Shown: positions 1 through 60,102 of the stretch, one piece after another
Position numbering within the stretch: the first letter of the stretch is position 1
How the letters are laid out: the number at the start of each line of letters is the position of its first letter
From: Candidatus Zixiibacteriota bacterium
GTDB taxonomy: Bacteria; Zixibacteria; MSB-5A5; WJJR01
DNA: 64,000 bases
NCBI GenBank assembly: GCA_040752075.1
Contig: JBFMFQ010000001.1
Coordinates: forward strand, 342 to 64,341
Direction of reading: 5' to 3'
Notes under the pieces: generated by a model
Database searches by the model: none
What the model was told of the DNA's origin: nothing
What the model saw: the letters and a program-made list of their open reading frames with translations, nothing else
Program-made: the position numbers and the translations under genes

Positions 1-79
1 GGTGTCCGTTCACCGGCGGAATTGGTATTGTATCCGTTCTCCGGGTGCGCCCGGCCCGGCCGCACGGAAGTTTAAGCCG

Positions 80-889
80 ATGAATGAAATCGCCTTCACA
101 AAGTATGAAGCCCTCCGGAATGACTTCATTATTGTGCACCAGCCCCCACCGGGCTTCCGCTGGACCGCGACTCGTGTCGCTGCGATTTGCGACCGCCGGG
201 CCGGGGCGGGGGCCGATGGGCTTATCATCCTCGGCGCTCCCAAGGGGATGTCCGCGTCTTTCCGGCTGTTTAATGCCGACGGCGGCTCAGCCGAGTGGTC
301 CGGCAACGGCATTCGTTGTGCCATTGCCTGCCTTCAGGACACGAACGCCGTGACCGAGATGAACTTCAAGACCGCAGCAGGACCGATCAATGCGACCATC
401 GAACCGCGTGGCTGGCGCGAACGATGGGCTTCCTTTGAGAGACCCTTGCCGGAGGTACGTCTGGCGAAGATGAACTCGCGTTCGGCCATCCCCCTGATCG
501 CGGGACCGTTCCATGTTGATGCGGGCAACCCTCACCGGGTTTACATCGTGAAGGATTTCGGCTTCGACTGGGAGGACGTTGGCGCGAAGTGCCAGGACAG
601 CGCGCGACGGACAAGAGGAATCAATGTGGAGTTCGTCAGACTGGCCGGCCTGGCCCGTCTTGAGATGCGCCTTTATGAACGCGGTGTCGGACCGACCCCG
701 GCATCAGGTTCCGGAGCGCTGGCGGCCGTGACAGTTTGCCATGCCCAGGGGGAGATCGGCGCGAAGGGCATCGCCGCATCGGTGGGGGGGCTCCAGTCCT
801 ACGAGATTGATGACAAGCGTGGGAGCATACGGTTGCACGCTCCCGTGCGACACGTGTATTCGGGTCAATGGAGCCCAAACGTCAGATGA
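80..889 (+). CDS. Diaminopimelate epimerase family protein (DapF-like). Both canonical catalytic Cys positions appear as Ser.
   Basis: N-terminal RNDFIIV (GNDF-like motif). NADGGSAEWSGNGIRC resembles the NADGSE..CGNGxRC block, with S in place of Cys73. NPHRV is present. YERGVGPTPASGSGA resembles YERGAGETQACGSGA, with S in place of Cys217. ATG at 80. Its stop overlaps trpE via ATGA at 886-889. Confidence 0.75.
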   Translation: MNEIAFTKYEALRNDFIIVHQPPPGFRWTATRVAAICDRRAGAGADGLIILGAPKGMSASFRLFNADGGSAEWSGNGIRCAIACLQDTNAVTEMNFKTAAGPINATIEPRGWRERWASFERPLPEVRLAKMNSRSAIPLIAGPFHVDAGNPHRVYIVKDFGFDWEDVGAKCQDSARRTRGINVEFVRLAGLARLEMRLYERGVGPTPASGSGALAAVTVCHAQGEIGAKGIAASVGGLQSYEIDDKRGSIRLHAPVRHVYSGQWSPNVR

Positions 890-2385
890 ACTCCGGGGTG
901 GAATTCAGGGAATTCAAAAGCCGCCTGTTGCAAGACGGGCTGGTCGTGCTCAGCGCAGAGATCCCGGCCGAGCTCCTGACTCCGGCGGCGGTCTTCCTGC
1001 GATTGGGGGGTGAACGCGCACGTTCCTCGTTCCTGTTTGAGAGCGTCGAGACCGGAGGGCGCATCGGGCGCTATTCATTCATCGGGATCGATCCCATCGA
1101 AGAGATCCGGCTGTCCGAAAGTGGCGGACATCACCGGATCGGTTCCTGGATCGCGGCGTTCTCGCCCGCCGAATTCCCAACCGTGGTGCGCGCACCACTA
1201 CAGGGGCGGAGCCGCTTTCACGACGACCACACCCCGCAAGGGCTCGCGGGAGGATGGGTTGGGTTTTTCTCCTACGACTGGGTCCGAATGCTGGAGCGGC
1301 TGCCGGAGCACACCACCGATCATCTGCGTCATCCCTGGGTGAGTCTTGGACTCTATGATGAGATCATCGTCTTCGACCACGTGTACCAGACCGCCCATGT
1401 CAATCTCGCCGTCAGGGCCACAGGCGATACCGGGCTCTCCGTTCTGCGACGGGCACACGACACTGGGCAACGCCGCTTGGAACGCACTGTGCGTCGCTTG
1501 AGACAACCTCAATCCCTTCCATCCGTGGGAAGGCTGACGCCCCGTCCCATTCAGTCCAACACCACGCCGCGCGGTTTCACCGAGGCGGTCAGGACCATCA
1601 AACGGCACATCGGGCGCGGCGACATCTTCCAGTGTGTGCTGTCTCAGCGATTCTCGGTCGATGGCCCGGTACGGCCGTTCGATGTCTACCGTCGCCTGCG
1701 CCGCAGCAATCCGTCGCCGTACATGTACTTTCTCAAGACCGACAAGTTGGCGATCGCCGGTTCATCTCCTGAGACCCTCGTTCAAAAGTCCGGATCCTCG
1801 ATACGGACACGCCCGATTGCCGGCACACGCCCGCGCGGCGACGACTCGGGTGAAGATTCGCGTCTCGAAAGGCAGCTTCTGGCATCGCCGAAGGAAAACG
1901 CCGAACACATCATGCTGGTCGATCTCGGTCGAAATGATCTTGGGCGTGTCGGTCAGGCAGGGTCAGTCAAGACGACCAGTTTCCGCCGAATCGAACGCTA
2001 TTCCCACGTCATGCACATGGTCTCCGAGGTCGAGGGGAAGGCCAAGCCAAGGGTCGATGCCTTGGATGTGCTGGCGGCCACATTTCCAGCCGGCACGGTC
2101 ACCGGAGCCCCGAAGATCCGTGCGATGGAAATCATCGAGTCGGTCGAGCCCGAACGGCGCGGGATCTACGCGGGCTGCGTTGGTTACATCGACTGGTGGG
2201 GAAACCTGGACACGGCCATCGCCATTCGCACCGCGGTGATGGACCGCCGGGGCGCCCACACCCAGGCCGGAGCGGGCATTGTGGCCGACAGCGACCCGGA
2301 AAGAGAGTACCGCGAGACGCAGAATAAGGCCGCCGCGCCGCTCTCAGCGCTTGGTGGTGTGTGGAAGCGGGGGCAAAAGCCGTGA
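868..2385 (+). CDS. trpE: Anthranilate synthase component I
   Basis: LFESVE, YSFIGIDP and GDIFQCVLSQRF chorismate-binding family motifs. C-terminal GAGIVADSDPEREYRE. Alternative ATG at 886 overlaps the dapF-like stop (ATGA). Confidence 0.85.
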   Translation: MEPKRQMNSGVEFREFKSRLLQDGLVVLSAEIPAELLTPAAVFLRLGGERARSSFLFESVETGGRIGRYSFIGIDPIEEIRLSESGGHHRIGSWIAAFSPAEFPTVVRAPLQGRSRFHDDHTPQGLAGGWVGFFSYDWVRMLERLPEHTTDHLRHPWVSLGLYDEIIVFDHVYQTAHVNLAVRATGDTGLSVLRRAHDTGQRRLERTVRRLRQPQSLPSVGRLTPRPIQSNTTPRGFTEAVRTIKRHIGRGDIFQCVLSQRFSVDGPVRPFDVYRRLRRSNPSPYMYFLKTDKLAIAGSSPETLVQKSGSSIRTRPIAGTRPRGDDSGEDSRLERQLLASPKENAEHIMLVDLGRNDLGRVGQAGSVKTTSFRRIERYSHVMHMVSEVEGKAKPRVDALDVLAATFPAGTVTGAPKIRAMEIIESVEPERRGIYAGCVGYIDWWGNLDTAIAIRTAVMDRRGAHTQAGAGIVADSDPEREYRETQNKAAAPLSALGGVWKRGQKP

Positions 2386-2948
2386 TCTTGCTCGTCGACA
2401 ACTACGACTCTTTCACCTACAACCTCTACCAGTACCTTGCCGAGCTGGGTGCGCAGGTGAAGGTGCTGCGCAATGATGCCGTCGATGTGGAGAGCATCAG
2501 TGCAAAGTATGAAGCGGTGGTTCTCTCTCCCGGACCGGGCCGTCCCAGTGAGGCGGGCGTCACCCCGGAGATCATCCGCCGTCACTCCGGCGCAATCCCG
2601 ATTCTGGGTGTCTGCCTCGGGCATCAGGCCATCGGCGAGGTGTTCGGCGGCAAAGTGGTCAGGGCCGCGCGGCTGATGCACGGCAAAACGTCGATGATTC
2701 GGCACAATGGCCGTGGATTATTCACCGGAATGGAGAATCCCTTCGAGGCCACACGCTACCATTCGCTGGTCGTTGAGAGGCAAAGCTGCCCCAACGTGCT
2801 GAAGGTGACCGCCGAGACCGAGGACGGCACCATCATGGGATTGAAGCATGTCAAACACCCCACGGTCGGTGTCCAGTTTCACCCGGAGTCCATCCTGACC
2901 CGCGCCGGCAAAGGTCTGCTCAAGAATTTTCTGGAGGGGAAGTACTGA
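2361..2948 (+). CDS. trpG: Anthranilate synthase component II (glutamine amidotransferase)
   Basis: LLVDNYDSFTYNLYQYL. Catalytic GVCLGHQ Cys. HPES His-Glu. Alternative GTG start at 2382 overlaps the trpE stop (GTGA). Confidence 0.85.
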   Translation: MEAGAKAVILLVDNYDSFTYNLYQYLAELGAQVKVLRNDAVDVESISAKYEAVVLSPGPGRPSEAGVTPEIIRRHSGAIPILGVCLGHQAIGEVFGGKVVRAARLMHGKTSMIRHNGRGLFTGMENPFEATRYHSLVVERQSCPNVLKVTAETEDGTIMGLKHVKHPTVGVQFHPESILTRAGKGLLKNFLEGKY

Positions 2949-2970
2949 GATTCCCCGAGATGACGCCGCC

Positions 2971-3987
2971 ATGCTGAAACCGTTCATCAAATCCGCGATC
3001 GAGCGCATCAATCTCTCCGTTGACGATGCCGAGACGGCCATGGGCGTCGTGATGCGCGGAGATGCGACCCCGGCGCAGATCGCCGCATGGCTGGTTGCGC
3101 TCCGTCAAAAGGGGGAAACCCCGGCGGAGATCACCGGGTTTGCACGGGCGATGCGGGCCGCCATGGTGACGATCCCCACGGTGCCGGAAGGGGCCATCGA
3201 TACATGCGGCACCGGAGGAGACGGGCTCTCGACCTTCAACATCTCCACGGCAGCCGCATTGATCACCGCATCGGCCGGTGTCCCGGTCGCCAAGCACGGC
3301 AACCGGGCGGTGTCCTCCAATTGCGGTTCCGCGGATGTACTGCACGCCCTCGGGTTCGAGATTGATCCGGGAGTGGAGGTTGTCACCAGCGCCCTCAACG
3401 AGATTCGTTTCGCATTTCTCTTTGCGCCGCGATTCCATCCGGCGATGAAACATGCGGTCGGGCCGCGCCGGGAGATCGGGGTGCGCACGGTCTTCAATAT
3501 TCTCGGACCTCTCTGCAATCCGGCGGGCGTCAAACGGCAGATTGTCGGCGTCTATGATCCGGCGGGAATCACCCGCATCGCGGAGGTGCTTGGCGCTCTC
3601 GGGTCGGAGCGGGTAATTGTCGTGTCTGGCCCAGGTGGTGCCGATGAACTCCTGCCGACCGGTGAAAACCTGGTGGCAGAGTGGAATGACGGCTCGCTAT
3701 CGAATTACTCCCTCGGCCCCTCGGACTTCGGCCTGCCGGAGATCAGGTTGGCCGACCTCAAGGGCACCGATGCGGATGGCAACGCGGAGGTCATTCGTGG
3801 CATCGCCCGCGGCGATCGCGGACCGATGACGGAGACAGCCCTGCTGAACGCCGGCGCGGCAATCTGGGTTGCCGGACGGGCCGAGACTCTGCGCGAGGGA
3901 ATTGCGGCGGCCCGCGCGGCGGTGGCCGATGGCCGTCTCCACGCGCTGTTGGAATCAGCCGCGAGAGCTAGCCGGTCGCGTACATGA
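2971..3987 (+). CDS. trpD: Anthranilate phosphoribosyltransferase
   Basis: GETPAEITGFARAMR, DTCGTGGDG, VAKHGNRAVSS motifs. ATG at 2971. Confidence 0.85.
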   Translation: MLKPFIKSAIERINLSVDDAETAMGVVMRGDATPAQIAAWLVALRQKGETPAEITGFARAMRAAMVTIPTVPEGAIDTCGTGGDGLSTFNISTAAALITASAGVPVAKHGNRAVSSNCGSADVLHALGFEIDPGVEVVTSALNEIRFAFLFAPRFHPAMKHAVGPRREIGVRTVFNILGPLCNPAGVKRQIVGVYDPAGITRIAEVLGALGSERVIVVSGPGGADELLPTGENLVAEWNDGSLSNYSLGPSDFGLPEIRLADLKGTDADGNAEVIRGIARGDRGPMTETALLNAGAAIWVAGRAETLREGIAAARAAVADGRLHALLESAARASRSRT

Positions 3988-4003
3988 GCGCAGTGTCAAC
4001 CAA

Positions 4004-5353
4004 ATGACCAACGGCATCGATACAACTCCTCCGTCGACCGTCAGGCAGATGCCCGACAGGTCCCCAATTCCTCCGGGAGGGCGGCGGCACCTCCCGGCAT
4101 GGTGGGGGGAATACCTCGAGAATCTCCGACGAATCTCGGTGCCGGCCCGCTGGTTCTTGCTGGGCACGACACTGATCGGGATGGCGTGGGCCACCTTCAT
4201 GCTGCTTTTCAACCTCTATATGAAGGAGCGAGGCTTCGCCGAGGGAACGATTGGGCATGTTTTGTCCATGCAGTCGTTTGGCATGGTTGCCCTGGCCGTC
4301 CCGGCAGCAATGATGGTGGCGCGGCGCTCGGCGCGCGGCCTTATGATCATGGCGAGCATCGGGGTTGCCATGGGCTTCTTATGGCAGACGTTGGCGGGCC
4401 CCGCTTCCATCATCCTGCTGGCCTCGTTTGCCACCGGTTCGATGATCGCGTTCTCGCGTGTGATGGGTTCGCCCTTCCTGATGAAGCACTCGACGCACGC
4501 GGAGCGTACCCATGTCTTTTCGCTGAGTTTCGCGGCGACGTTGAGTTCCGGGTTACTCACGCATTTCGCCGCGGGCTCCCTTCACCGCGTGCTCACGGGA
4601 ATCTCCGGGTCGCCCTTGACCGCCTACCGCATCGTCCTCCTGCTCGGCACCAGTTGCGCATTGGGCGCGGCGCTTGCCTTCTCACGCATCCCGCGTGGTG
4701 TGGTTGGCGTGCGCGGCCCCCGCCTCCCCTTGCGGGAGTTCTGGCGTGTTAAGGGACGGCTTCTGTTCCGGCTGATCTTTCCCTTCTTCCTTGTTGGAAT
4801 GGGCGCGGGACTGATCATCCCGTTTCTGAATTTGTACTTCAACGACCGCTTCGGACTAAGCGCACAGACCATCGGCTTCTACTATGCCCTTGTGCAGGCC
4901 TCGATGATTGTCGGCGTCATGATCGGCCCGGAACTCGCCCGCCGGTTCGGCATGATCCGCACCATAGTCTTTTCCGAGTGGGCGTCTCTGCCCTTTATGG
5001 TCATCATGGCGTTTACTCACAACCTGCCCTTGGCCACCGCGGCCTTTGTTGTGCGCGGTGCGCTCATGAACCTGGGCGTGCCGATTTCCAACAACTACAT
5101 GATGGAACGGGTGGGGGAATCCGATCGCGCCCTGGCCAACAGCTGGTCAATGGTGTCCTGGTCACTCTCCTGGGCGATTACCACCTGGATCGGCGGCACA
5201 ATGATCGAGCATCTCGGATATGAGATTCCTCTCATCGCCGCCAGTGTGCTCTATGTCGCCTCCAGCGTCATGTACTACGTGTATTTCCGGAACGAGGACA
5301 TCCATGCCGGGCGGCCGCCGGTGTCCGGTGGCGTGCGACCGGGCGAGGAATAG
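4004..5353 (+). CDS. MFS-type transporter (about 12 TM) embedded in the trp operon
   Basis: Multiple hydrophobic helices. Located between trpD and trpC on the same strand. ATG at 4004 is 17 nt after the trpD stop. An upstream extension to 3869 would overlap trpD and is discounted. Confidence 0.6.
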   Translation: MTNGIDTTPPSTVRQMPDRSPIPPGGRRHLPAWWGEYLENLRRISVPARWFLLGTTLIGMAWATFMLLFNLYMKERGFAEGTIGHVLSMQSFGMVALAVPAAMMVARRSARGLMIMASIGVAMGFLWQTLAGPASIILLASFATGSMIAFSRVMGSPFLMKHSTHAERTHVFSLSFAATLSSGLLTHFAAGSLHRVLTGISGSPLTAYRIVLLLGTSCALGAALAFSRIPRGVVGVRGPRLPLREFWRVKGRLLFRLIFPFFLVGMGAGLIIPFLNLYFNDRFGLSAQTIGFYYALVQASMIVGVMIGPELARRFGMIRTIVFSEWASLPFMVIMAFTHNLPLATAAFVVRGALMNLGVPISNNYMMERVGESDRALANSWSMVSWSLSWAITTWIGGTMIEHLGYEIPLIAASVLYVASSVMYYVYFRNEDIHAGRPPVSGGVRPGEE

Positions 5354-5363
5354 CGGGCAACCG

Positions 5364-6167
5364 ATGGCTGATGCCAGACACACAACAATCCCGGCCGTCT
5401 TAAGGGACATCGTGGCCGCCGCGCAGCGCCGGGCGCAATCGCTGCACCAGACCTCGTCCTTCGGCGAACTGGAATCGAAGGGACGGCGGCGCCAGAAACG
5501 GCCGTTTGCCCTCGCGCTGGAGAAGTGCCGTCCGGCGATCATTGCGGAAGTCAAGAAAGCCTCGCCTTCGAAGGGCGTGTTTCGATCCGACTTCGATCCG
5601 ATCCGGCTGGCCGCGTCGTACCAGGATGGCGGCGCCGCCGCTTTGTCGGTGGTCACAGAGCCCGAGTACTTCCAGGGAAACACCGCCTGGATCGAAGCAT
5701 TGCGCAACTCGTGTCATCTCCCGATTCTGCGGAAGGACTTCCTGATCGAGCCGATCCAGGTGGCCGAATCCGCGGCGGCGGGGGCGGATGCGATCCTGCT
5801 CATCGCCCGGATCTTGACATCATCGCAGCTGGCCGAGTTGACCGAGTCCGCCAAAGCGCTCGATCTCGAGATCCTCTTCGAGGCTCACGATGAGGCAGAC
5901 TTAAGCAAGATTGCCGGCTTGAATCCCGAACTCATCGGGATCAACGCGCGCAATCTGGACGATTTCAGCGTCTCGATGGACACATTCGAACCGCTCCGGA
6001 CCGGGATTCCCGCAAACGCCATGGCGATCGCGGAGAGCGGGCTTGAGAATTACGCCCAGATTAGGGACTTGATGACCACCGGATACCGAGGATTCTTGAT
6101 CGGTGAATCTCTCCTCAAAAGCGGGGATCCGTCCACCCTGTTGCGTACCCTGCGCGGCGAGGGCTGA
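5364..6167 (+). CDS. trpC: Indole-3-glycerol phosphate synthase
   Basis: IAEVKKASPSKG and ALSVVTEPEYFQG motifs typical of TrpC. ATG at 5364. Confidence 0.85.
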   Translation: MADARHTTIPAVLRDIVAAAQRRAQSLHQTSSFGELESKGRRRQKRPFALALEKCRPAIIAEVKKASPSKGVFRSDFDPIRLAASYQDGGAAALSVVTEPEYFQGNTAWIEALRNSCHLPILRKDFLIEPIQVAESAAAGADAILLIARILTSSQLAELTESAKALDLEILFEAHDEADLSKIAGLNPELIGINARNLDDFSVSMDTFEPLRTGIPANAMAIAESGLENYAQIRDLMTTGYRGFLIGESLLKSGDPSTLLRTLRGEG

Positions 6168-6171
6168 TCCA

Positions 6172-6822
6172 ATGCGACGCACACGAATCAAGTTCTGCGG
6201 CATAACCCGCCCGGAAGATGCCCGTGCGGCGGAGGCGGCGGGCTGCGATGCGGTGGGAGTGGTGCTCTGGCCGGGGAGCAAACGCGCGGTGTCCAGAGAT
6301 CAGGCCAAAGAAATCGCCGGGGCTGTCTCGCCAATGATCGCCGTCGTCGGCGTCTTCGTCAGCCCCACCCCGGAGGAAGTTCAAAGCGCCGCGCTGGACA
6401 TCGGGTTGTCTGCTGCACAGTTATCCGGACCACTGGATGAACGCGGATGGGATTCAGTTAACGGGGTTCGACTCCTGCGGGTGATCGGCATGAACAGCGA
6501 CCTCCAGCGGCCGGAACCTTGGCGCGGACTGAGAGACTACGTGCTCGACACGCTCGATGCCAACCACCAGGGGGGAACCGGCCAGGCATTCGATTGGTCG
6601 CTGGTATCGCGCATCGACCACTCGTGGCGGATCTGGCTCGCCGGCGGCTTGAGCCCGGAGAATGTGGACACCGCGATACGGCAAGTCCGCCCCTACGGGG
6701 TCGATGTCTCAAGCGGGATCGAGTCTTCCGTCGGCATCAAGTCTGCCGATCTCATGCAGAGATTCGCGGAGCAGGTTCGCCGGGCGGATGAATCCCTTCG
6801 AACGGACAGGTTGGAACAATGA
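6172..6822 (+). CDS. trpF: Phosphoribosylanthranilate isomerase
   Basis: [13 protein letters not shown]-terminus and TIM-barrel PRAI pattern. ATG at 6172. ATGA overlap with trpB at 6819-6822. Confidence 0.8.
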
Positions 6823-8060
6823 CGCCTGCAAAACACACTCAGCCGGCATCCACCATCCGCGGCCGCGACTACCGTCGCCGACCCGATCGCCGGGGTCGTT
6901 TCGGACGTTTTGGCGGCCGGTACGTGCCTGAAACCCTCATCCCCGCGCTGGATCGGCTGACCCGTGATTTCGAGTCAGCCTGGCGGGACCGCTCATTCCA
7001 GCGCGAGTACCGCGATCTTCTGCGCGAGTATGCCGGGCGTCCGACGCCGCTCTATTTCGCCGAACGCCTGACACGGGAACTCAAGCGCGGCAGGATCTAC
7101 CTGAAACGGGAAGACCTCAACCACACCGGTTCGCACAAACTGAACAATGTGCTCGGGCAGGTTCTTCTGGCGGTGCGGGGCGGGCGCAAACGCGTGATCG
7201 CCGAGACCGGCGCCGGGCAGCACGGCGTCGCCACCGCCACCGTGGCGGCACGCTTCGGCCTCTCGTGCGATGTCTACATGGGGAAACTGGATGTGGAGCG
7301 GCAGGCGCCCAATGTGGCGCGCATGCGCCTGCTCGGAGCGCGGGTCATCCCGGTCGAATCGGGAGCGCAGACGCTGAAAGATGCGACCAACGAGGCGATC
7401 CGCGACTGGGTCACGAATGTGGAATCGACCTTCTATGTCATCGGTTCCGTGGTGGGCCCGCATCCATACCCGTATATGGTGCGTCAGTTCCAGCGGATCA
7501 TCGGCGAGGAAGCCCGGCGTCAGTTCAGGCGTCAGACCGGACGATTGCCGGACTGCCTGATCGCCTGTGTCGGCGGCGGCTCCAACGCGATCGGCTTTTT
7601 CACGGCGTTCCTGCCGGACCAACGGGTGGAACTAATCGGCGCCGAAGCAGCCGGCCATGGGATACGAAGCGGACAACACGCCGCGAGTCTCACTGCGGGG
7701 ACCATCGGGGTCCTGCACGGGTCCATGGGGTATCTGCTCCAGAGCGCAACAGGCCAGATCACCGTGCCGCACTCGATCTCCGCAGGGCTGGACTATCCGG
7801 GAGTAGGCCCCGAACACTCCTTCCTCAAGGACAGCGGACGGGTTCGGTATGTCGCGATCACAGATGATGAGGCGATCGGGGCGTTTCACCTTCTCTCAAG
7901 GCAGGAGGGTATTTTGCCCGCGTTAGAGTCGGCCCACGCCATTGCGGCCCTCTCGCGCCTCCCGCGCGACCGGTCCGGCAAGCGCACTATTGGTGTGTGT
8001 CTTTCCGGACGCGGCGACAAAGACCTGGCGACCGTGACGTCCACCGGAGAGGGGAAGTAG
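6819..8060 (+). CDS. trpB: Tryptophan synthase beta chain
   Basis: [24 protein letters not shown] (PLP Lys), [10 protein letters not shown] motifs. Confidence 0.9.
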
Positions 8061-8063
8061 CCG

Positions 8064-8852
8064 ATGGACTCGCCAATCTCCCGTCTTCGCTCGATCTTTA
8101 TTGATGGCCGGCCGATCATTCCGTTTCTGACCGCCGGTTTCCCGAAGCCGACAGTCTTCCTCGATGCCGTGACCGCCTGTGTCGATGCCGGCGCGGCCGC
8201 GCTGGAAATCGGCGTGCCGTTTTCCGATCCCCTCGCCGACGGACCCACGATTCAACACTCCTCCCAGGTCGCCCTGGCGCAGGGGGTTGATCTTGATGCC
8301 GTCTTCGATCTGACGCAGCGGGTGTGCACGCGCCACGATATCCCTGTCCTTCTGATGGGCTACTTCAACCCGCTTTTGAAGCGCGGACTGGACCGGTTCG
8401 CCTCGGACGTGCGATCGGCCGGCGCATGCGGAACGATTATTCCGGATTGCCCGGTCGATGAGGCGGTGGACTGGATGGCGGCGTCAAGGCGGGTCGGGCT
8501 CGCCAATGTCTTCCTGATCGCACCCACCACCACCGATGAGCGCATCACCGTCATTGACCGCCATTCAACGGCCTTCTCATATTGTGTGTCTGTGGCCGGG
8601 GTGACCGGCGCACGGAGTGGAGTGGCGGCGTCCACGCGTCGTTTCCTGAAACGGGTCGCCGAACGGGCCGAGAAACCCCACGTGGTGGGGTTCGGTATCT
8701 CGAATCCCGCCCACATTCGCGAGTTGCGCGGGCTCGCCGACGGTTTCGTGGTGGGATCGGCCCTGGTGAATACCCTGCGAGACGGAAAGGGTAGAGAACG
8801 CACTCACCGTCTGTCCAATCTTGTCGAGTCGCTGGTCCGGGCGGCTGAGTGA
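8064..8852 (+). CDS. trpA: Tryptophan synthase alpha chain
   Basis: IPFLTAGFP and ALEIGVPFSDPLADGP motifs. Confidence 0.85.
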   Translation: MDSPISRLRSIFIDGRPIIPFLTAGFPKPTVFLDAVTACVDAGAAALEIGVPFSDPLADGPTIQHSSQVALAQGVDLDAVFDLTQRVCTRHDIPVLLMGYFNPLLKRGLDRFASDVRSAGACGTIIPDCPVDEAVDWMAASRRVGLANVFLIAPTTTDERITVIDRHSTAFSYCVSVAGVTGARSGVAASTRRFLKRVAERAEKPHVVGFGISNPAHIRELRGLADGFVVGSALVNTLRDGKGRERTHRLSNLVESLVRAAE

Positions 8853-8873
8853 GTGGCGGTTGTCGGTAGCCGA

Positions 8874-10610
8874 ATGAGCCAGGTGCAATCAGCGACATAC
8901 TTCCAGGAGGTCTGTGACGCGACCGCTGACGCCCTCGTTCGAATGGGAGCGCAAGTCACCGTTCAGACCGTGGCTGATCTCTTTGAATTCCCCGGACGCA
9001 AGGATTTCGGCGATTCGGCGCTCCCCTGCTTTGTACTGGCGCGGGAGATGAAGTTGCCGCCCCCCAAGATTGCCGCAGCCTTGCAGGAGCACTTCCGGAA
9101 CCCAGCATCGGTCGTGCGCACCGCCGCGGTCGGGGGCTATTTCAACATCTGGTACGATCCGGCTGCCATCGCCGACGAAGTACTGCCCGCCATCAGAGCG
9201 GAGGGACGCGCCTATGGATCTTCGACCGAAGGAGCCGGCCGGACCATCTGCATGGATTACTCGCACCCCAACATCGCCAAGCCGTTCGGGGTCGGGCACC
9301 TGCGCTCCACCGTGATCGGGCACTCGCTCAAACGTGTATTCGAGAAGCTCGGGTATGCGACGCGCGGGATCAATCACCTCGGCGACTGGGGCACCCAGTT
9401 CGGACGCCTGATCGTGGCCTACCGGGATTGGGGCGATCCGGCCGAACTCGAGAAAGCGCCGATCCGGCACCTCTACGATCTCTATGTGCGATTCCACGCG
9501 CAGGCAGAGACCGACAAGGCGCTCGAAGAACGCGGACGACAGGAGTTCAAAAAGCTGGAAGACGGTGATCCCGACAATCGCCGTCTGTGGCAGCAGTTCC
9601 GCGACCTTTCGTTGGCGGAGTTCCAGCGGGTCTACCGTCGGCTCGGGGTGACGTTCGATTCGTACGACGGGGAGGCGTTCTTCGAATCCCGCCTGAGCCC
9701 TTTAATTGAACGCCTCACACAATCCGGGGTGGCCTCGGTCGGTGATGATGGCGCCCTGGTGATTCCCGTGGGGGAGGGCGATGAACCGCCGCTTCTCATT
9801 CGCAAGGCGGATGGCGCAACGCTCTACGCCACCCGGGACATCGCCGCGGCGGAATACCGCCACGAGACCTACGACTTCGACCAATGCCTGTACATCGTTG
9901 GCAGCGCGCAAGCGCTGCACTTCAAACAGCTGTTCGCCGCGCTAAAGCGGATGGGGTACGCGTGGGCCGAGCGCATGGCGCACGTCGATTTTGGCTGGGT
10001 CAAGCTCGGGGACACAATGATGTCCACGCGCCGCGGTAACATTGTGTTCCTGGACGAGGTCCTCTCCGAGGCGGTGGCTTTCATTCGTCGAGTCATTGCG
10101 GAGCGCAATCCCAACTTGGGCAACCCGGACCGGGTCGCCGAGGAAGTCGGGGTCGGAGCGGTCGTGTTCTGGATGCTGGCGGTCAAACGCCAAAAGGATG
10201 TGAATTTCGACTGGGCGGATGTCCTGTCGTTCGATGGGCGGACCGGACCGTATGTCCAGTACACGCACGCGCGTGTCAGTTCCCTAATCTCAAAGTGGGG
10301 TAAGCCCATTCCCGGCATTGACGACTGCGATTTCCAGGCATTGCGGACCGACGAAGAAAGACACCTGCTTTTGCAGCTGGCCGACTGGCCGCGCCGGGTT
10401 CGAATGGCCGCCCGTCAGTACGAACCGCAGATCCTGTCGGCCGCCCTGCTGGATATGGCTCAGGCGTACAACAAGTTCTATCAGACCGTCCGCATCCTGG
10501 ACGGCGAACCGGAGGCTGTTCCGGCGCGTGTCCTGCTGGCCGACTGTTTCCGGGAGGTGCTGGCCGATGGGCTGTATCTTCTTGGTCTGGCCGCGCCGGA
10601 GAGAATGTGA
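8874..10610 (+). CDS. argS: Arginine--tRNA ligase
   Basis: Class I aaRS. SHPNIAKPFGVGHLRS (HIGH-like region), MMSTRRGN (KMSK-like), C-terminal DALR-type anticodon-binding region. ATG at 8874. Alternative GTG at 8853 abuts the trpA stop. Confidence 0.8.
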   Translation: MSQVQSATYFQEVCDATADALVRMGAQVTVQTVADLFEFPGRKDFGDSALPCFVLAREMKLPPPKIAAALQEHFRNPASVVRTAAVGGYFNIWYDPAAIADEVLPAIRAEGRAYGSSTEGAGRTICMDYSHPNIAKPFGVGHLRSTVIGHSLKRVFEKLGYATRGINHLGDWGTQFGRLIVAYRDWGDPAELEKAPIRHLYDLYVRFHAQAETDKALEERGRQEFKKLEDGDPDNRRLWQQFRDLSLAEFQRVYRRLGVTFDSYDGEAFFESRLSPLIERLTQSGVASVGDDGALVIPVGEGDEPPLLIRKADGATLYATRDIAAAEYRHETYDFDQCLYIVGSAQALHFKQLFAALKRMGYAWAERMAHVDFGWVKLGDTMMSTRRGNIVFLDEVLSEAVAFIRRVIAERNPNLGNPDRVAEEVGVGAVVFWMLAVKRQKDVNFDWADVLSFDGRTGPYVQYTHARVSSLISKWGKPIPGIDDCDFQALRTDEERHLLLQLADWPRRVRMAARQYEPQILSAALLDMAQAYNKFYQTVRILDGEPEAVPARVLLADCFREVLADGLYLLGLAAPERM

Positions 10611-10740: not shown

Positions 10741-11757
10741 ATGTTAATCGTCATGGACGCCCACGCCACCTCCCAGCAGGTCGATCATGTCTGCGAGGAG
10801 ATCAAGGGGATGGGATTGATTGCCCATCCGATGCCGGGCGCGCAGCGCACCGCCATCGGTATCACGGGAAATAAGAGCGCCGTGGATGCGTCGCGGCTCG
10901 AGCAGATGCCCGGCGTGGTCCAGGTCATTCATGTCACGGCGCCTTACAAACTGGTCAGCCGCGAATTCCATGAGCAGGACACGCTCGTGGATGTAAATGG
11001 CGTCAAGGTTGGCGGCGACCACTTCGTCATCATGGCCGGCCCCTGCGCGGTCGAATCGGCCGAGCAGATCGATGACATCGCCGGACGGCTGAAGTCCTCC
11101 GGGGCCCACATCCTGCGGGGCGGCGCATTTAAGCCGCGCACCTCGCCATACAGTTTTCAGGGCATGGGGGAAAAGGGGCTCCAGATCCTGGCGGAGGCCG
11201 GCAAACGCCACGGTCTTCCCACTGTGACCGAGGCGATCGACAACGAGTCGCTCGATCTGGTGGCCCGCTACGCCGACATGATCCAAATCGGCGCGCGCAA
11301 CATGCAGAACTTCTCGCTTTTGCGTCATGCCGGACGCAGCCGCAAACCGGTGCTCCTTAAGCGCGGCATGTCGGCGACTCTCGAGGAATTGCTGATGGCC
11401 GCCGAGTACATTGTCAACGAAGGCAACCCGAATGTCGTTCTCTGCGAGCGCGGTGTGCGCACGTTCGCGAATCACACGCGAAACACACTCGACTTGTCCG
11501 CCATTCCATTTGTCCAGCGCGCGAGCCACCTTCCGATCATTGCCGATCCCAGCCACGGTACCGGGCGTCGCGACAAGGTGATTCCACTGTCCTGTGCGTC
11601 CGTGGCCGTCGGCGCCGATGGGCTCATGGTGGAGGTGCATCCGCACCCCGATTCCGCGTTGTCCGACGGATCTCAATCGCTGTTCCCCGACCAGTTCGCG
11701 GAGCTGATGAAACGCGTTTCGGATATCGCGAAGGTCGTTGGCCGGCATCTCGCCTGA
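10741..11757 (+). CDS. 3-deoxy-7-phosphoheptulonate (DAHP) synthase, type I-beta, with N-terminal ferredoxin-like regulatory domain
   Basis: GPCAVES, LRGGAFKPRTSPYSFQG, DPSHGTG motifs shared with KDO8P/DAH7P synthases. About 90-aa N-terminal extension before the barrel. Confidence 0.8.
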   Translation: MLIVMDAHATSQQVDHVCEEIKGMGLIAHPMPGAQRTAIGITGNKSAVDASRLEQMPGVVQVIHVTAPYKLVSREFHEQDTLVDVNGVKVGGDHFVIMAGPCAVESAEQIDDIAGRLKSSGAHILRGGAFKPRTSPYSFQGMGEKGLQILAEAGKRHGLPTVTEAIDNESLDLVARYADMIQIGARNMQNFSLLRHAGRSRKPVLLKRGMSATLEELLMAAEYIVNEGNPNVVLCERGVRTFANHTRNTLDLSAIPFVQRASHLPIIADPSHGTGRRDKVIPLSCASVAVGADGLMVEVHPHPDSALSDGSQSLFPDQFAELMKRVSDIAKVVGRHLA

Positions 11758-13166
11758 TGCCCTCAACCCGACTGGATCCCATGCCAACCACCACACGAAG
11801 CGAACTGAAGATCGAACCGGCGCGCAAAATTGTCGGTCACTATTCCCCGCCGCCGGATAAGTCCATCGCGCATCGCGCGGTCATTCTCTCCGCTCTCGCG
11901 GAGGGCCGCTCGACGGTCGAGCCCCTCTCGCGCGCGGCCGATGTCGCCTCGACCGTGTCGTGCCTGCGTCAACTCGGAGTCTCGATTCAAATTGATGGAG
12001 ACACCTGTGTCATCGACAGCCCGGGCGTGGACAAATGGATGGCACCGGAGCGCGCGCTTGATTGCGGAAACTCGGGGACCACTTTGCGCCTCTTGGCCGG
12101 TTGTCTTGCCGGACGGAGATTCGACGCCACCCTGATCGGGGATGATTCCCTATCGACACGTCCGATGGGGCGCATTGCGCATCCGCTGGTTCAGATGGGG
12201 GCGCGAATCGACCTTTCCGAAGGGGACACAGCCCCCATGACCGTAAGGGGCGCACGGCTCCGGGGAATCGACTATCGTCTGCCGGTGGCGTCCGCCCAGG
12301 TCAAATCCGCAGTTCTCCTGGCGGGGCTTTCCGCCGATGGTCCGGTCTCGGTGGTGGAAGTCCATCCCTCGCGCGACCACACAGAGCGGATGCTGGCCGA
12401 GGCAGGAGTCGATTGCAGGACTCATTTGGCGCCGCGCCCGCCCGACCGCCGTGAAATCCTGGCGCAGGATATTCCATTGGATTCACTCCCGCCGGTCCCA
12501 GACTATCACCACCGGGTCGTGCTCGGCGACCGCCGGCAGCTCACCAGGAACGACTGGACAATCCCCGGCGATTTCTCGGCGGCCGCGTTTTTCATTGCCG
12601 CGGCGCTCGGGGCACGTCGGTCCGACCTCATCCTCGCCAACGTGGGATTGAATCCGACACGCACGGGTCTGTTGAAAGTCCTTCGCCGCATGGGGGCGGA
12701 AATGGAGGTCGAACGGACCAGCCACGGCGCCGGCGAGCCATTCGGCGTGATTCATGTCCAAAGCGCCAGTCACCTCAAGGCGGTCAAGGTTTCCGAATCC
12801 GAGATACCCTCCCTGATCGATGAACTCCCGGTTTTGGCCATGCTGGCGGCCCGTGCGGATGGCGTGACCGTCATTCGCGGCGCCGCCGAATTGCGAAAGA
12901 AAGAAACCGATCGGATTGCCGCGGTGAGCCGCAACTTGCGGGCCATGGGCGGCAAGGTGGCGGAGTTGGAGGATGGCTGGGCCATCGAGGGGCCGACCGA
13001 TTGGCACGGCGCCGAAATCGATCCCCAGGGAGATCACCGCATCGCGATGGCGTTTGCCATCGCCGCCCTGTGGGCGGATTCGCCCAGCATGATCCGAACG
13101 CCGTCGGTCGCCGCGGTCTCGGATCCGGATTTCTTCACGAGCCTAAGCGCGCTTGTGCACAATTGA
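11757..13166 (+). CDS. aroA: 3-phosphoshikimate 1-carboxyvinyltransferase (EPSP synthase)
   Basis: PPDKSIAHRAVILSAL (PGDKSISHR-like), LDCGNSGTTLRLL, RKKETDRI motifs. TGATG overlap with the upstream stop. Alternative ATG at 11781. Confidence 0.85.
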   Translation: MPSTRLDPMPTTTRSELKIEPARKIVGHYSPPPDKSIAHRAVILSALAEGRSTVEPLSRAADVASTVSCLRQLGVSIQIDGDTCVIDSPGVDKWMAPERALDCGNSGTTLRLLAGCLAGRRFDATLIGDDSLSTRPMGRIAHPLVQMGARIDLSEGDTAPMTVRGARLRGIDYRLPVASAQVKSAVLLAGLSADGPVSVVEVHPSRDHTERMLAEAGVDCRTHLAPRPPDRREILAQDIPLDSLPPVPDYHHRVVLGDRRQLTRNDWTIPGDFSAAAFFIAAALGARRSDLILANVGLNPTRTGLLKVLRRMGAEMEVERTSHGAGEPFGVIHVQSASHLKAVKVSESEIPSLIDELPVLAMLAARADGVTVIRGAAELRKKETDRIAAVSRNLRAMGGKVAELEDGWAIEGPTDWHGAEIDPQGDHRIAMAFAIAALWADSPSMIRTPSVAAVSDPDFFTSLSALVHN

Positions 13167-13196: not shown

Positions 13197-14072
13197 ATGA
13201 ATCCCAGGACTCCCAATGAACGGGTCGAGCGCGCGGTCTACGGGGTTCTCGGTCATGAGATCGGATACTCGCTCTCCCCGAAGATATTTCGGACCGTATT
13301 CGATGCGTTGGAATGGCCGGCCGTATATGCGCTCTTTGATCGCCGACCAGCGGAGGTGCCTCGTTTCGTTTCGGCGGCAGCGACACTTGGAATTCTCGGA
13401 CTCAACGTGACCAAGCCATTCAAGGTGTCAATCGTCGCGTACATGGACCGGTTGGATGATTCCGCCCGTTGCACTGGGGCGGTCAACACAATTCGTTTCG
13501 AGGGACGGCGATCGACCGGTTACAACACGGACATTGCCGGGGTAATCGCCGCTCTCAAACCTCATGCCGCGCGGCTGCGTGGGCAAACGGCGCTGATCTT
13601 GGGCGCGGGCGGAGCGGCGCGGGCTGTTGCACTTACACTGGAGCGCACCTTCCGCATGCGCCGATTGACATTCGCAGTAAGATCCAGGCGGGCGGGGGAA
13701 CGAATGATCGACTCGTTCGCCACTGCCGCCGAACCATCGGCGATCCTTGAGACCATTCCTTACGAGGCAGACCCGATCCGGGACCGATTGAACCATTGCG
13801 CCTTGCTTGTCAACGCCACGCCGACAGGGACCTCCGGGCCTGCGTCCGGGAGCCCCCTGCCGCGCGGAGTGAAGTTGACAGCGGAAACGCTGGTCTTCGA
13901 TCTGGTCTACCAGCCCCGGGAAACTGCACTGCTAAAACTGGCGGTCCGCTCTGGTTGCCGGGCAGTCGGCGGCTGGCCGATGCTCGTTGCGCAAGCCGAA
14001 GAGTCGTTCCGCATTTGGACCGGACGACGCTTTCCGGTATCATCCCGTCGCAAACTGATGATGTGGAAATGA
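13197..14072 (+). CDS. aroE: Shikimate dehydrogenase
   Basis: YGVLGHEIGYSLSP, NVTKPFK (catalytic Lys), YNTDIAG and GAGGAARAV (NADP fold). Confidence 0.8.
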   Translation: MNPRTPNERVERAVYGVLGHEIGYSLSPKIFRTVFDALEWPAVYALFDRRPAEVPRFVSAAATLGILGLNVTKPFKVSIVAYMDRLDDSARCTGAVNTIRFEGRRSTGYNTDIAGVIAALKPHAARLRGQTALILGAGGAARAVALTLERTFRMRRLTFAVRSRRAGERMIDSFATAAEPSAILETIPYEADPIRDRLNHCALLVNATPTGTSGPASGSPLPRGVKLTAETLVFDLVYQPRETALLKLAVRSGCRAVGGWPMLVAQAEESFRIWTGRRFPVSSRRKLMMWK

Positions 14073-37464: not shown

Positions 37465-38349
37465 TTAAGGCAGCATCGAACGGAGGTCTCGTTCAACCGC
37501 GCGGCGGTAGTCGGCCTTTAATGTCTCGAAAACCCGCAACGCCCGGGCGGTCAGGCGCAGTCTTTTGCTCCCCAGCCGGCGAGCCAGCCGCAGTCCGCGC
37601 ACAGACGACGTCAAGAATACCCCATCCGCCGTTTCAAGCGACCGGAGTGTCAGGCCGCCGGTCCGTACAGGAATGCCCCGCTCGTGGGCGGCGTCCAGGA
37701 TTACTTGTCGCACCACGCCGGCCAGTGCGCCATCCCTGAGGGAGGGGGTACGCAGCGTGCCGTTTTCAATGGCGAACACCGTCGCCTGCGCGCCATCCGC
37801 AATACGGCCGCGCGAATTGACCACGATCGCATCGTCGCATCCCTCCGCGGCGGCCATCTCCGATGCGAACACATTCGGGAAGTACGCCAGGGTCTTGCAG
37901 CCGATCATCGGATTGATGGGATCAATGCGCCATGGCGCAACCCAGACATTTCCTGCCTGCACCAAGGGGTTGGTTTGCGGCCTGACAATGATGACTCTTC
38001 TCGGCTTGAAGTCTGGTGCGAATCCGCGAGTGGTGATCAGGTTTGCCGCGCCCTCGCCGGCTCCGCTGCGGACAATCAACCGCTTGAGATGCCGGCGCCA
38101 CCAGTTTGTGTCGCCCATGTCGATCTGGAGGCGCTCTCCGCCCGCCCGCATCCGGTCCAGGTGCTGCTGCAGGAACAGGGCGTGACCACGGTGAATCCGG
38201 ATTGTCTCAAACAACCCCCAGCCAAATCGGAATCCCCAGTCTTCAATTGAAATGGCGGGGCGATCAGGGGACAGGATTCGCCCGTCGATTGACGCGAAAT
38301 CGCGCGACTTAACGGGCTTCGACCGTGGGTTTTTCGTGGATGATGTCAT
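37465..38349 (-). CDS. pabC: Aminodeoxychorismate lyase (class IV aminotransferase fold)
   Basis: Fold-type IV PLP enzyme pattern (WGFRFGWGLFETIRIH ... GCKTLAYFPNVFA). Immediately downstream of and overlapping pabB. Start ATG 38349 overlaps pabB by about 41 nt. Confidence 0.6.
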   Translation of the reverse strand: MTSSTKNPRSKPVKSRDFASIDGRILSPDRPAISIEDWGFRFGWGLFETIRIHRGHALFLQQHLDRMRAGGERLQIDMGDTNWWRRHLKRLIVRSGAGEGAANLITTRGFAPDFKPRRVIIVRPQTNPLVQAGNVWVAPWRIDPINPMIGCKTLAYFPNVFASEMAAAEGCDDAIVVNSRGRIADGAQATVFAIENGTLRTPSLRDGALAGVVRQVILDAAHERGIPVRTGGLTLRSLETADGVFLTSSVRGLRLARRLGSKRLRLTARALRVFETLKADYRRAVERDLRSMLP

Positions 38350-39667
38350 GCGTCGTTGTCTCGATCCCGCTCGGCAACAATGAATCCAACATCGGCGCGA
38401 TTTTGACCAGCGATTCCTCGTACTCGGCGTCACAATCCGAGTCGGCCACGATTCCGCCGCCGCCGTGGACACGGAGCGTGGGTCCGATTTTCACCGCTGT
38501 GCGAATCGCCACGGAAAAGTCGGCGTCCCCGGCCGCATTCACCCAGCCGATGGCGCCGCAATAGACCCCGCGCGGGGTGGACTCCACCTCGTTGAGAATC
38601 TCGACGGAACGGCGCTTTGGCGCCCCGGTGATGGACCCGCAGGGGTGCATGGCCCGCATCACATCATGCCACTGCAATCCCGGAGCGAGCCGGGCGCGAA
38701 CGATTGATTCGAGGTGCCAGACCGATGCATAGGCGCGCGGCCGTCTGAGGGCCGCGACACGAACACTGCCGATCTCGGCGATCGTCCCCAGATCGTTTCG
38801 CTCAAGATCCGTGATCATCAGCAATTCGGCCCGGTCCTTCCCACTTTCGAGCAGGGCTCTGAGATTCGCCCTGTCGGACAATGGGTCATTTCCACGCGCC
38901 CGGGTGCCCTTGATGGGACGGGACTCCACGACGTTCCCGGATTTTCGCCAGAATCGTTCCGGCGAACATGAGATCACTTCGATTCCGGGGTAAGCCGCAT
39001 CGATTGATCCATCGCGCATGCGACCGGGAGGGAATCGGAGATAGGCCGAAAACGGCGCCGGATTGGTCCTCGCGAGACGTTCGTAGAGCTCCCGGCCCGG
39101 GGTGGTCGTTTCGGATTCGAATGCCTGCGTGAGATTGGCCTGGTAGATGTCCCCTTCGGCGATGTGCTCTTTGATTTTCCGCACGGCATCGCGGTAATCC
39201 GATTTTGCCACCAGCGGTTTCCATCCATACAGCGATGGGTGCCTGCAGGGAGCCTTAATCCCAGTGTGTCGCGCCGAACTCGCGGGGGAGACGGTTTCAA
39301 GCTGGCCGAAGAGCAGGAATTGGATCGGGGGATATTCCGCTCGTCTTGGTGAGCGCAGCCCAAGCATCGCATGCCCGAATTCATACGACACGTACCCGAT
39401 CATTCCCCCTTGGGGAAACTCACCGGCCACGTTCTCCCGAAGCCGTTCGAGCGCGTCAAGGGTGTCACCGTTTCCTGATGCCCCAGTGCCATCTTGCCAT
39501 CTGACGGCCCAGTGGGCATCATCCGCCGCGAATCGCCCCAGCAAACCCCGCCCGATAACATGGCCTACCCCCAGTCCGGGCCGGCGCCAGCGGCTCTCCA
39601 GGATGGCCATGCCACCAATTCCGTCTTGGAGGGGCGATGGAGGAGCGAAGGTGGATTCGAACATCAT
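38309..39667 (-). CDS. pabB: Aminodeoxychorismate synthase component I (TrpE/PabB family)
   Basis: Chorismate-binding motifs GDIYQANLTQAF, PFSAYLRF, GSITGAPKRRS, GGGIVADSDCDAEYEE. Paired with pabC-like. Start ATG 39667 or GTG 39784. Confidence 0.65.
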   Translation of the reverse strand: MMFESTFAPPSPLQDGIGGMAILESRWRRPGLGVGHVIGRGLLGRFAADDAHWAVRWQDGTGASGNGDTLDALERLRENVAGEFPQGGMIGYVSYEFGHAMLGLRSPRRAEYPPIQFLLFGQLETVSPASSARHTGIKAPCRHPSLYGWKPLVAKSDYRDAVRKIKEHIAEGDIYQANLTQAFESETTTPGRELYERLARTNPAPFSAYLRFPPGRMRDGSIDAAYPGIEVISCSPERFWRKSGNVVESRPIKGTRARGNDPLSDRANLRALLESGKDRAELLMITDLERNDLGTIAEIGSVRVAALRRPRAYASVWHLESIVRARLAPGLQWHDVMRAMHPCGSITGAPKRRSVEILNEVESTPRGVYCGAIGWVNAAGDADFSVAIRTAVKIGPTLRVHGGGGIVADSDCDAEYEESLVKIAPMLDSLLPSGIETTTHDIIHEKPTVEAR

Positions 39668-39874
39668 GGCGGGTGAGAAACATCGGAATTTCCCCCCGAT
39701 CAAGGTGTATTGAGGACAGGAGGGCCGACAGCCGCGATTCCGGTCCGAAGTTGTCAGGGATCGGCTCCGGCGCCGATCCGACACTGAAATCTATCTAAAT
39801 GTATTGCAACGACTTATGAAATTGGCGCAATTTGACTCTAAACCCGCATCCGGGTTACCCGTATCAAATAGCAC

Positions 39875-39900
39875 GGAACGTCACGCCCACTCGATTGTAT
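39875..39900 (+). promoter_or_regulatory. Candidate ECF-type promoter (GGAAC -35 element) in AT-rich divergent region upstream of ECF sigma gene
   Basis: GGAAC at 39875-39879, followed 16 nt later by TGTATT. Region 39785-39947 is conspicuously AT-rich relative to the window. Confidence 0.25.
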
Positions 39901-39947
39901 TAAGGCGTGAGAGCTATTCGTTGCGACCGAACAAGGGAGCTACAATA

Positions 39948-55176: not shown

Positions 55177-57596
<2,420 letters not shown>

Positions 57597-60094: not shown

Positions 60095-60102
60095 GACAAA
60101 AG

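Follow-up and report, generated by a model that had tools for sequence, protein, structure and literature searches.

Diaminopimelate (DAP) epimerase, DapF, is the standard example of an epimerase that works with two thiols and no cofactor. It is also an antibacterial target, for which the best mechanism-based inhibitors act by alkylating the catalytic cysteines. PhzF (trans-2,3-dihydro-3-hydroxyanthranilate isomerase), which is distantly related in fold and acts on a chorismate-derived substrate, uses a catalytic Glu where DapF has its Cys pair. We analysed a DapF-like gene at positions 80-889 (+ strand) of a 64,000-nucleotide (nt) stretch of contig JBFMFQ010000001.1 (assembly GCA_040752075.1) from a Candidatus Zixiibacteriota bacterium, the whole of which is called the window here. 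Both catalytic Cys of canonical DapF (H. influenzae, E. coli, Anabaena, Arabidopsis) are Ser in its product, and the gene lies at the head of a trp operon, not in the dap/lys or miaA-hflX context of the canonical genes. With about even confidence, we favour the reading that it would encode a thiol-free DAP epimerase ortholog within an operon controlled by tryptophan (Trp) attenuation.

The substrate contacts of canonical DapF are known from Anabaena DapF-inhibitor structures, in which N13 contacts the reacting amine and the backbone NH groups of G76, N77, G225 and T226 hold the reacting carboxylate, while the distal amine is held by N66, E215 and R216 and the distal carboxylate by R216, N66, N164 and N197, with a salt bridge between E73 and R216 (PMC12039745). 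Several proteins of the DapF fold act outside lysine pathways, namely the 2,4-diaminobutyrate racemase PddB, the histidine racemases HisR/CntK and the O-ureidoserine racemase DcsC, and these retain the Cys/Cys pair. In PddB, a substrate-switched DapF homologue, N64, N157, N190 and R209 are replaced and the Cys pair is kept (PMC8225329), and the HisR pocket has been described as being without any basic residue (PMC11602996). The proline racemase superfamily resembles DapF in its pseudo-symmetric two-domain site, with catalytic residues at the N-termini of two opposed helices, but is another branch with other substrates, and the excerpted account of it reports no epimerase pair with Ser on both faces (PMC4113996). 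The same account describes a natural Ser93/Cys236 4-hydroxyproline 2-epimerase (B9JQV3) that is a bona fide epimerase, and a Ser90/Thr256 trans-3-hydroxyproline dehydratase (B9K4G4) in which Ser abstracts the C-alpha proton (PMC4113996); these natural enzymes show that Ser can abstract a C-alpha proton in such an active site.

The open reading frame (ORF) at 80-889 begins with ATG at 80, ends with TGA at 887-889 and encodes 269 amino acids (aa), and NCBI lists a protein of 100% identity to the product under the name 'MAG: diaminopimelate epimerase [Candidatus Zixiibacteriota bacterium]' (MAG, metagenome-assembled genome). It matched Pfam PF01678 (DAP_epimerase) with E=7e-30 (103.9 bits against a cutoff of 34.7), the sole Pfam family reported at E<=1, with no match to the PhzF family PF02567, and it matched the NCBIfam DapF equivalog TIGR00652 at full length (residues 4-263; 153.2 bits against a cutoff of 114.65). 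An AlphaFold2 model built with 53 relatives (mean predicted local distance difference test score, pLDDT, 94.7) displayed the two-domain DapF architecture, in which the N-termini of two helices flank the active site, and had helices beginning at 75 and 210, directly after Ser74 and Ser209. When this model was compared with solved structures by Foldseek, the top matches were all DapF (template modelling score, TM, ~0.8), with proline racemase and PhzF structures far behind, PhzF ranking ~30th or lower at 12-14% identity. The ratio of nonsynonymous to synonymous substitution rates (dN/dS) was 0.09-0.16, similar to that of trpE in the same genome pairs, which indicates that the gene is under purifying selection. 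The product was thus confirmed as a full-length DapF-fold protein, like canonical DapF in fold, in length and in its GNG and GxG helix-cap motifs.

The catalytic columns were set by phmmer alignments to the solved DapFs of Anabaena (9mro), A. baumannii (5ha4) and Arabidopsis (3ejx), which placed the query motif 'EWSGNGIRC' opposite 'EMCGNGIRC' and 'PASGSGA' opposite 'LACGTGA'. The catalytic thiol/thiolate pair of DapF is therefore missing, Ser74 and Ser209 filling both columns, as the first-pass annotation had proposed from an alignment by eye. That annotation had also asked whether the Cys of GIRC might itself occupy a catalytic column; it does not, but aligns with a non-catalytic helix Cys of canonical DapFs. 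The protein belongs to a clade of 53 sequences, mostly from Zixibacteria MAGs, and roughly half of these carry Gly in place of that Cys. Within these 53 sequences no alternative invariant Cys lies near the active site, and no alternative alignment rescued a catalytic Cys. Both columns were Ser in 53/53 clade sequences (42-85% identity), with codons that drift synonymously (TCC/TCT/TCG at the first site, TCG/TCA/TCC at the second), and this invariance together with synonymous codon turnover argues that the Ser/Ser pair is neither error nor chance. The product also differs from canonical DapF in having Trp for the Met that precedes the first catalytic residue and in a clade-specific W164 and TP(S/A)S motif.

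The pocket, in contrast to the catalytic pair, is that of a DapF. In the phmmer alignment, query N14, N65, E72, G75, N76 and N150 correspond to Anabaena N13, N66, E73, G76, N77 and N164, and query N182, E200, R201, G210 and S211 to N197, E215, R216, G225 and T226. These DAP-contact residues were invariant or nearly so in the 53 clade sequences, and the equivalent of each of the proximal and distal DAP residues expected of a DapF (N11, N64, G74, N75, N157, N190, E208, R209, G218, S/T219) was found to be present. The arrangement is the reverse of that in PddB and HisR, which keep Cys/Cys but not an intact set of DAP-binding residues, whereas the 80-889 product loses Cys/Cys and keeps the pocket. 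Because the pocket is kept, unlike in PddB and HisR, the ligand is argued to be DAP still, and from its residues this is the most likely ligand. The suggestion made earlier, that a DapF-fold enzyme might act here on a chorismate-derived intermediate in the manner of PhzF, does not fit these observations: all DAP contacts are kept, no PhzF Pfam match was obtained and the structural match to PhzF, a protein without the DAP pocket, is much weaker than that to DapF. A chorismate or PhzF-like substrate thus appears unlikely from the sequence.

An intact pocket would also suit an enzyme that acts on DAP or a close analogue with a different or one-way reaction, such as unidirectional epimerisation or elimination. 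Changes to the acid/base pair alter the outcome in related superfamilies (PMC8142540, PMC4113996), examples being the unidirectional Thr/Cys aspartate racemase EcL-DER and the Cys/Thr and Ser/Thr hydroxyproline dehydratases, which carry out elimination. The pair here is however symmetric (Ser/Ser) and not asymmetric, DAP has no beta-leaving group, and nothing among the accessory genes points to a new pathway from DAP, so we hold this explanation to be very improbable.

The clade profile was searched against 1.84 billion 50%-identity representatives, among which the clade itself amounted to three representatives at >357 bits, with the next scores at <=228 bits. All 53 clade members were Ser/Ser. 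When the best 150 representatives were aligned with reference sequences (~155 in all), 102 were Cys/Cys, 42 Ser/Ser, 9 Ser/Cys and 2 Cys/Ser, and the DAP pocket was almost unchanged in all of the Ser-containing forms in this aligned set. Several of the Ser/Ser representatives were proteins from Acidobacteriota MAGs. A search with one Ser/Ser protein of this Acidobacteriota-type group, P0286, returned 6943 relatives at E<=1e-20; the best 120 of these, taken with four related proteins, were Ser/Ser in 124/124 cases ('EMSGNG...SSGTGS'), and those few with source names were from Acidobacteria/Terriglobia MAGs. The pair is consequently not an oddity of the 80-889 gene, as had at first been thought, but the rule in a very large natural branch. 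This Ser/Ser branch of DapF is large and old, and it is apparently uncharacterised: no published description or assay of a natural Ser-containing DapF was found, and the literature searched held no relevant paper with C73S/C217S data or on DAP metabolism in Zixibacteria or Acidobacteria. A single origin of all Ser/Ser forms was considered and not adopted, as a crude neighbour-joining tree grouped most of them together but was star-like and poorly resolved.

The genomic settings of the Ser-containing forms were varied. Two members of the P0286 group lay in ordinary housekeeping neighbourhoods with trp/aro genes near neither, and at locus L028 the Ser/Ser dapF gene was near genes for an LD-carboxypeptidase (LdcA, Peptidase_S66) and a Mur ligase. 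The Ser/Cys form P0084 (L023 6001-6825) sits in the order miaB-miaA-dapF-hflX-aminotransferase (dapC)-dapD, the classic actinobacterial arrangement. Its motifs, EMSGNGIRC...CGTGA, recur in Acidimicrobiia/Acidimicrobiales MAGs (L014-L016), with ETSGNGIRC in L016. In all four of these Ser/Cys loci the Ser codon was AGC, compared with TCN in the clade of the window, which argues for independent Cys to Ser events.

The proteins P0179/P0286 and P0400 and ~6900 relatives (loci L028-L031) have an intact DAP pocket and are automatically annotated as diaminopimelate epimerase. Another Ser/Ser DapF group is represented by P0072 (L024 2106-3080; relatives P0073, P0075 and P0077), whose members, at 324-330 aa, are ~50 residues longer than the usual DapF; the gene adjoins one for a Peptidase_M61/PDZ protein, a context that is uninformative. 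The nearest Cys/Cys homologue, P0071 (L027 5170-8825; relatives labelled Polyangiaceae), is encoded divergently beside aroC and a fused aroK-aroB, which indicates that adjacency of DapF and aro genes is not limited to Ser/Ser forms. Neither a second DapF homologue (tblastn) nor any dap or lys gene was found in the 64-kb window, and no Zixibacteria-labelled Cys/Cys protein surfaced in three homologue searches, the search with P0071 giving Polyangiaceae-type relatives.

The linkage of the gene to trpE, which had been read from the window alone, was borne out by comparison across loci. The trpE start at 886 overlaps the stop of the DapF-like gene in an ATGA; this start, and not the upstream ATG at 868, agrees with the orthologues, and comparable TGATG/ATGA junctions were present in L001, L003, L004, L007 and L011. 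No terminator-like site was found on the + strand between a small hairpin at 5-20 and position 1004, in keeping with the earlier statement that none precedes trpE. In the window the gene is co-directional with the trp/aro cluster. Fourteen loci (13 from the clade and the P0074-type locus L022, at 33% identity) shared the order aminotransferase, DapF-like, trpE, trpG, trpD, major facilitator superfamily (MFS) transporter, trpC, trpF, trpB and trpA, followed by argS and a 3-deoxy-D-arabino-heptulosonate 7-phosphate (DAHP) synthase gene in either order, with a small chorismate mutase gene also in the P0074-type locus; the contigs of L005, L007 and L013 are short and end before the distal operon genes. 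Eleven clade loci extend far enough to show the MFS gene, and in these, as in the P0074-type loci L021/L022, it separates trpD from trpC; it is the fastest-evolving gene of the operon (28-37% identity among clade loci). In the clade loci that reach that far, argS lies between trpA and the DAHP synthase/aroA/aroE genes, and after the DAHP synthase gene in L022; with no relation to the other genes of the trp/aro cluster, it is a passenger there. The linkage of the DapF-like gene to trp is tight, conserved and regulatory.

Upstream of the DapF-like gene, the aminotransferase belongs to the KAT-II/Aro8/LysN family (PH0207, 4e-112; T. thermophilus LysN, 3e-94; multiple-substrate aminotransferase). 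A dapL-dapF pair, with this aminotransferase in the role of DapL, was considered and rejected, as the aminotransferase scored 93-110 bits with DapC_direct against a cutoff of 593.

We read the upstream region in orthologues, with the closest relative, P0002/L032 (85% identical), standing in for the window, where positions 1-79 are a 3' remnant: base 1 aligns ~35 nt past the terminator U-run of that relative, and the leader of the window itself is very probably in the 377 nt of the contig that lie outside the window, off its 5' edge. The spacer between the aminotransferase and DapF-like genes was 260-420 nt (L001 9739-10000, L002 9744-10000, L003 7977-8399, L032 5682-6000), and reading of these intergenic sequences revealed a short ORF rich in Trp codons in 13/13 clade loci, with 2-4 clustered Trp codons. 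Examples of the leader peptide are MKNQLTVWHWRWEGSN, MLTVNYQWWWMKES and MMKHVRTNWNWRKARAR, with MKSIRTNRVWWRGRSW in the closest relative. The segment after the leader ORF, GATCGGTGGG, is conserved and is able to base-pair with CCCGTCGATC, the 5' arm of the terminator; the terminator itself, CCCGTCGATCCGACGGG-U6-9, is conserved too, and has a U-run and a hairpin of 10 bp in which 2 pairs covary. The minimum-energy fold given by RNAfold was the terminator in some orthologues and the antiterminator in others. Both features of a trpL-type leader, a Trp-codon ORF and a terminator with a competing antiterminator, are therefore present in the orthologous loci, and on these features the region is a predicted ribosome-mediated Trp attenuator of the classical kind, with the DapF-like gene as the predicted first cistron of the attenuated operon in the clade.

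This leader is like the E. coli-type trpL in its short Trp-codon ORF, its mutually exclusive antiterminator and terminator, its U-run and its place upstream of trp genes, but differs in that the first regulated cistron is a DapF homologue and not trpE, in a conserved promoter-like block between terminator and first gene and in having no Rfam match. No Rfam family reached its gathering score in 7 upstream loci, and a riboswitch or T-box was rejected for these loci on that basis. The block, GGATTAGnnGTTGTGA-N17-TAnnnT, lay between the terminator and the DapF-like start in 8 loci (L003 8320-8355, L001 9955-9990, for example) with promoter-like spacing. The window (18-31) and the closest relative keep only its 5' half, GGAATTGGTATTGT, and as the -10 part is missing in both, this post-terminator block (TTGTGA-N17-TAnnnT) was not accepted as a definite promoter; it may be an internal promoter, an operator or an RNA element. 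The Trp leader was absent from the P0074-type locus and from L025.

Such a setting could point to a DapF-fold enzyme that has taken a new function in tryptophan or aromatic metabolism, with, for instance, an amino acid that is aromatic or derived from chorismate as its substrate. The position between an Aro8/LysN-family aminotransferase and trpE, held in 14 loci down to 33% identity, the Trp leader/attenuator upstream and the overlap with trpE would all suit this, and the protein is more diverged from canonical DapF than are other Ser/Ser forms. The distal-site residues N65, N150, N182, E200 and R201 are however invariant, unlike in PddB, there is no PhzF signature, and DapF structures fit the model far better than those of PhzF or proline racemase. 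The operon already has genes for the full set of seven Trp pathway enzymes, and it also contains argS and MFS as unrelated passengers. Moreover, the gene persists where trp genes have been lost: L025 10001-17260 (GCA_964461835.1, contig CAYWVO010000037.1) is a degraded version of the trp locus in which a Cys/Ser DapF homologue (ETCINGIRC / LSSGSGALA) is followed by MFS, an unknown gene, trpF, argS and aroA, with a Rieske/cytochrome b/multihaem cluster inserted between the aminotransferase and the DapF gene, and trpEGD, trpC and trpBA are missing, yet the DapF homologue is kept. Ser/Ser orthologues elsewhere have no aro/trp context. The presence of the seven Trp enzymes, the other passengers, the retention in L025 and the lack of aromatic context elsewhere argue that the protein is not a Trp-pathway enzyme, and we judge a new role in aromatic metabolism to be improbable. 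The location that the first-pass annotation called odd for a lysine/peptidoglycan gene was confirmed and is conserved, and in orthologues it comes with an upstream Trp attenuator; L025, however, keeps its DapF gene after the loss of most trp genes, and Ser/Ser orthologues elsewhere are not trp-linked. The trp coupling proved stronger than that annotation had supposed, and its proposal of a new substrate was not upheld. We read the trp placement not as evidence for chorismate-related chemistry but as a probable lineage-specific operon arrangement, in which the DapF-like gene would be a passenger like argS and MFS.

Our favoured reading of a thiol-free epimerase would then run as follows. The protein, with its two-domain DapF fold and full pocket for both ends of LL-/meso-diaminopimelate, has most likely kept DAP as its ligand and converts the LL and meso forms into each other, with the Ser hydroxyls at the N-termini of the two active-site helices presumably replacing thiol and thiolate as acid and base; the rate of epimerisation may be low. 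Through the Trp-codon leader, the alternative hairpins and translational coupling to trpE, its expression would track tryptophan supply. Besides fold, pocket, selection and breadth, further findings were counted in favour: the Ser/Cys form P0084 beside dapD occupies the housekeeping dapF slot, suggesting that Ser is tolerated in a housekeeping DapF, and the Ser/Ser orthologue P0074 (33% identity) shares the gene order without having a Trp leader, suggesting independence from Trp synthesis. More tentatively, we propose for the family that a large natural DapF lineage (the mostly Zixibacteria-labelled clade, Acidobacteriota/Terriglobia MAGs and many unnamed metagenomic relatives) may epimerise DAP without thiols by a Ser/Ser hydroxyl-alkoxide pair, in the clade also under tryptophan attenuation.

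Several points weigh against this reading. Engineered single Cys to Ser changes in PddB, M. tuberculosis DapF and HisR left <0.1% or 'greatly reduced' activity (PMC8225329, PMC11602996), and this loss of >99.9% in laboratory mutants of DapF-family racemases supports the first-pass annotation on that point; and a review explains the preference for Cys over Ser/Thr by pKa and desolvation (PMC8142540). The TIGR00652 score of the product (153 bits) is below the ~201-228 bits of the other Ser-containing DapF homologues that were scored, and the gene diverges faster than most of its neighbours (44-51% identity, against 59-80% for TrpE, TrpG and TrpB). The upstream neighbour is an Aro8/LysN-type aminotransferase. 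A Trp attenuator would be an awkward control for an essential cell-wall gene, and meso-DAP in Ser/Ser genomes may come from a Cys/Cys DapF, a meso-DAP dehydrogenase or the pyridoxal phosphate (PLP)-type DapF2.

These points lead to the explanation that the protein is a catalytically dead pseudoenzyme that binds DAP or LL-DAP as a sensor, chaperone or partner, meso-DAP being made by another enzyme. A single Cys to Ser change nearly abolishes activity in PddB, M. tuberculosis DapF and HisR, a binding role would explain the intact pocket and purifying selection equally, and a protein that is not essential could tolerate expression under Trp attenuation. There is precedent for a non-catalytic role, as E. 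coli DapF activates RppH independently of catalysis. E. coli without dapF grows, so other routes to meso-DAP exist, and PLP-type DapF2 is known; for these two reasons a non-catalytic DAP-binding role remains a serious rival. Set against it, the replacement is always Ser and never Ala, Gly or Thr in >150 diverged sequences, reached through both TCN and AGC codons, which suggests that the hydroxyl is needed. Ser/Cys forms fill the housekeeping dapF slot beside dapD, the related proline racemase superfamily has members in which Ser is proven to act as catalytic base (PMC4113996), and no second DapF homologue was present in the window or among named Zixibacteria proteins. On balance we consider a pseudoenzyme unlikely, and retain the thiol-free epimerase as the preferred reading.

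Table 1. Positions in the window of the DapF-like gene, its two catalytic-column codons and the flanking trp/aro genes
Feature	Position	Strand	Basis
5' untranslated stretch, with GGAAG Shine-Dalgarno-like site at 66-70	1-79	+	aligns just downstream of attenuator terminator of L032
DapF-family coding sequence, 269 aa, Ser/Ser instead of catalytic Cys pair	80-889	+	family models, AlphaFold2, Foldseek, dN/dS
Codon TCC, Ser74, column of catalytic Cys73 (H. influenzae) / Cys75 (Anabaena)	299-301	+	phmmer alignment
Codon TCA, Ser209, column of catalytic Cys217 (H. influenzae) / Cys224 (Anabaena)	704-706	+	phmmer alignment
ATGA overlap: trpE start 886-888, DapF-like stop 887-889	886-889	+	orthologue alignment begins at 886
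trpE (anthranilate synthase component I)	886-2385	+	Pfam Anth_synt_I_N + Chorismate_bind
trpG 2361-2948, trpD 2971-3987	2361-3987	+	L001/L002 orthologues GATase, Glycos_transf_3; blastx identity 57-79%
MFS transporter gene between trpD and trpC (true start probably downstream of 3869)	3869-5353	+	Pfam MFS_1
trpC, trpF, trpB, trpA	5220-8852	+	ORFs, orthologous loci
argS (arginyl-tRNA synthetase)	8853-10610	+	ORFs, orthologous loci
DAHP synthase gene	10741-11757	+	ORFs, orthologous loci
aroA	11757-13166	+	ORFs, orthologous loci
aroE	13197-14072	+	ORFs, orthologous loci

Elsewhere in the window, a gene for a second chorismate-binding enzyme, of the isochorismate or aminodeoxychorismate synthase type, lies far from the trp operon at 38312-39784 (- strand), adjoining genes for an extracytoplasmic function (ECF) sigma factor / zf-HC2 anti-sigma pair (39804-41106). 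A lipopolysaccharide/3-deoxy-D-manno-octulosonate (LPS/KDO) cluster, encoding KdsB, CTP synthase, a KdsA-like DAHP_synth_1 protein, a HAD phosphatase, an SIS+CBS isomerase and LptC, is followed by two further genes (55177-60681 and 62131-63723 for the whole), one for an isocitrate/isopropylmalate dehydrogenase and one for an ATP-grasp/citrate-binding protein resembling ATP-citrate lyase or the succinyl-CoA synthetase beta subunit.

Should the natural Ser/Ser orthologues, which number in the thousands, prove to be working enzymes, the requirement for a thiolate base and a thiol acid is not general, and the view that the Cys/Cys dyad is obligatory for DapF would be overturned. The family would then provide a natural test set for how Ser is activated to remove an unactivated C-alpha proton, and neither oxidation nor inhibitors directed at thiols, such as aziridino-DAP, would affect its enzymes. 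The predicted Trp leader/attenuator would extend classical ribosome-mediated attenuation to Zixibacteria-labelled MAGs, with an unusual first regulated cistron, and in this clade a step towards cell-wall and lysine precursors would be coupled to Trp status. If the Ser/Ser proteins are instead inactive, major uncultured lineages, including many Acidobacteriota-labelled MAGs, need another source of meso-DAP. Either way, automatic annotation labels Ser/Ser proteins 'diaminopimelate epimerase' and the missing catalytic residues go unnoticed.

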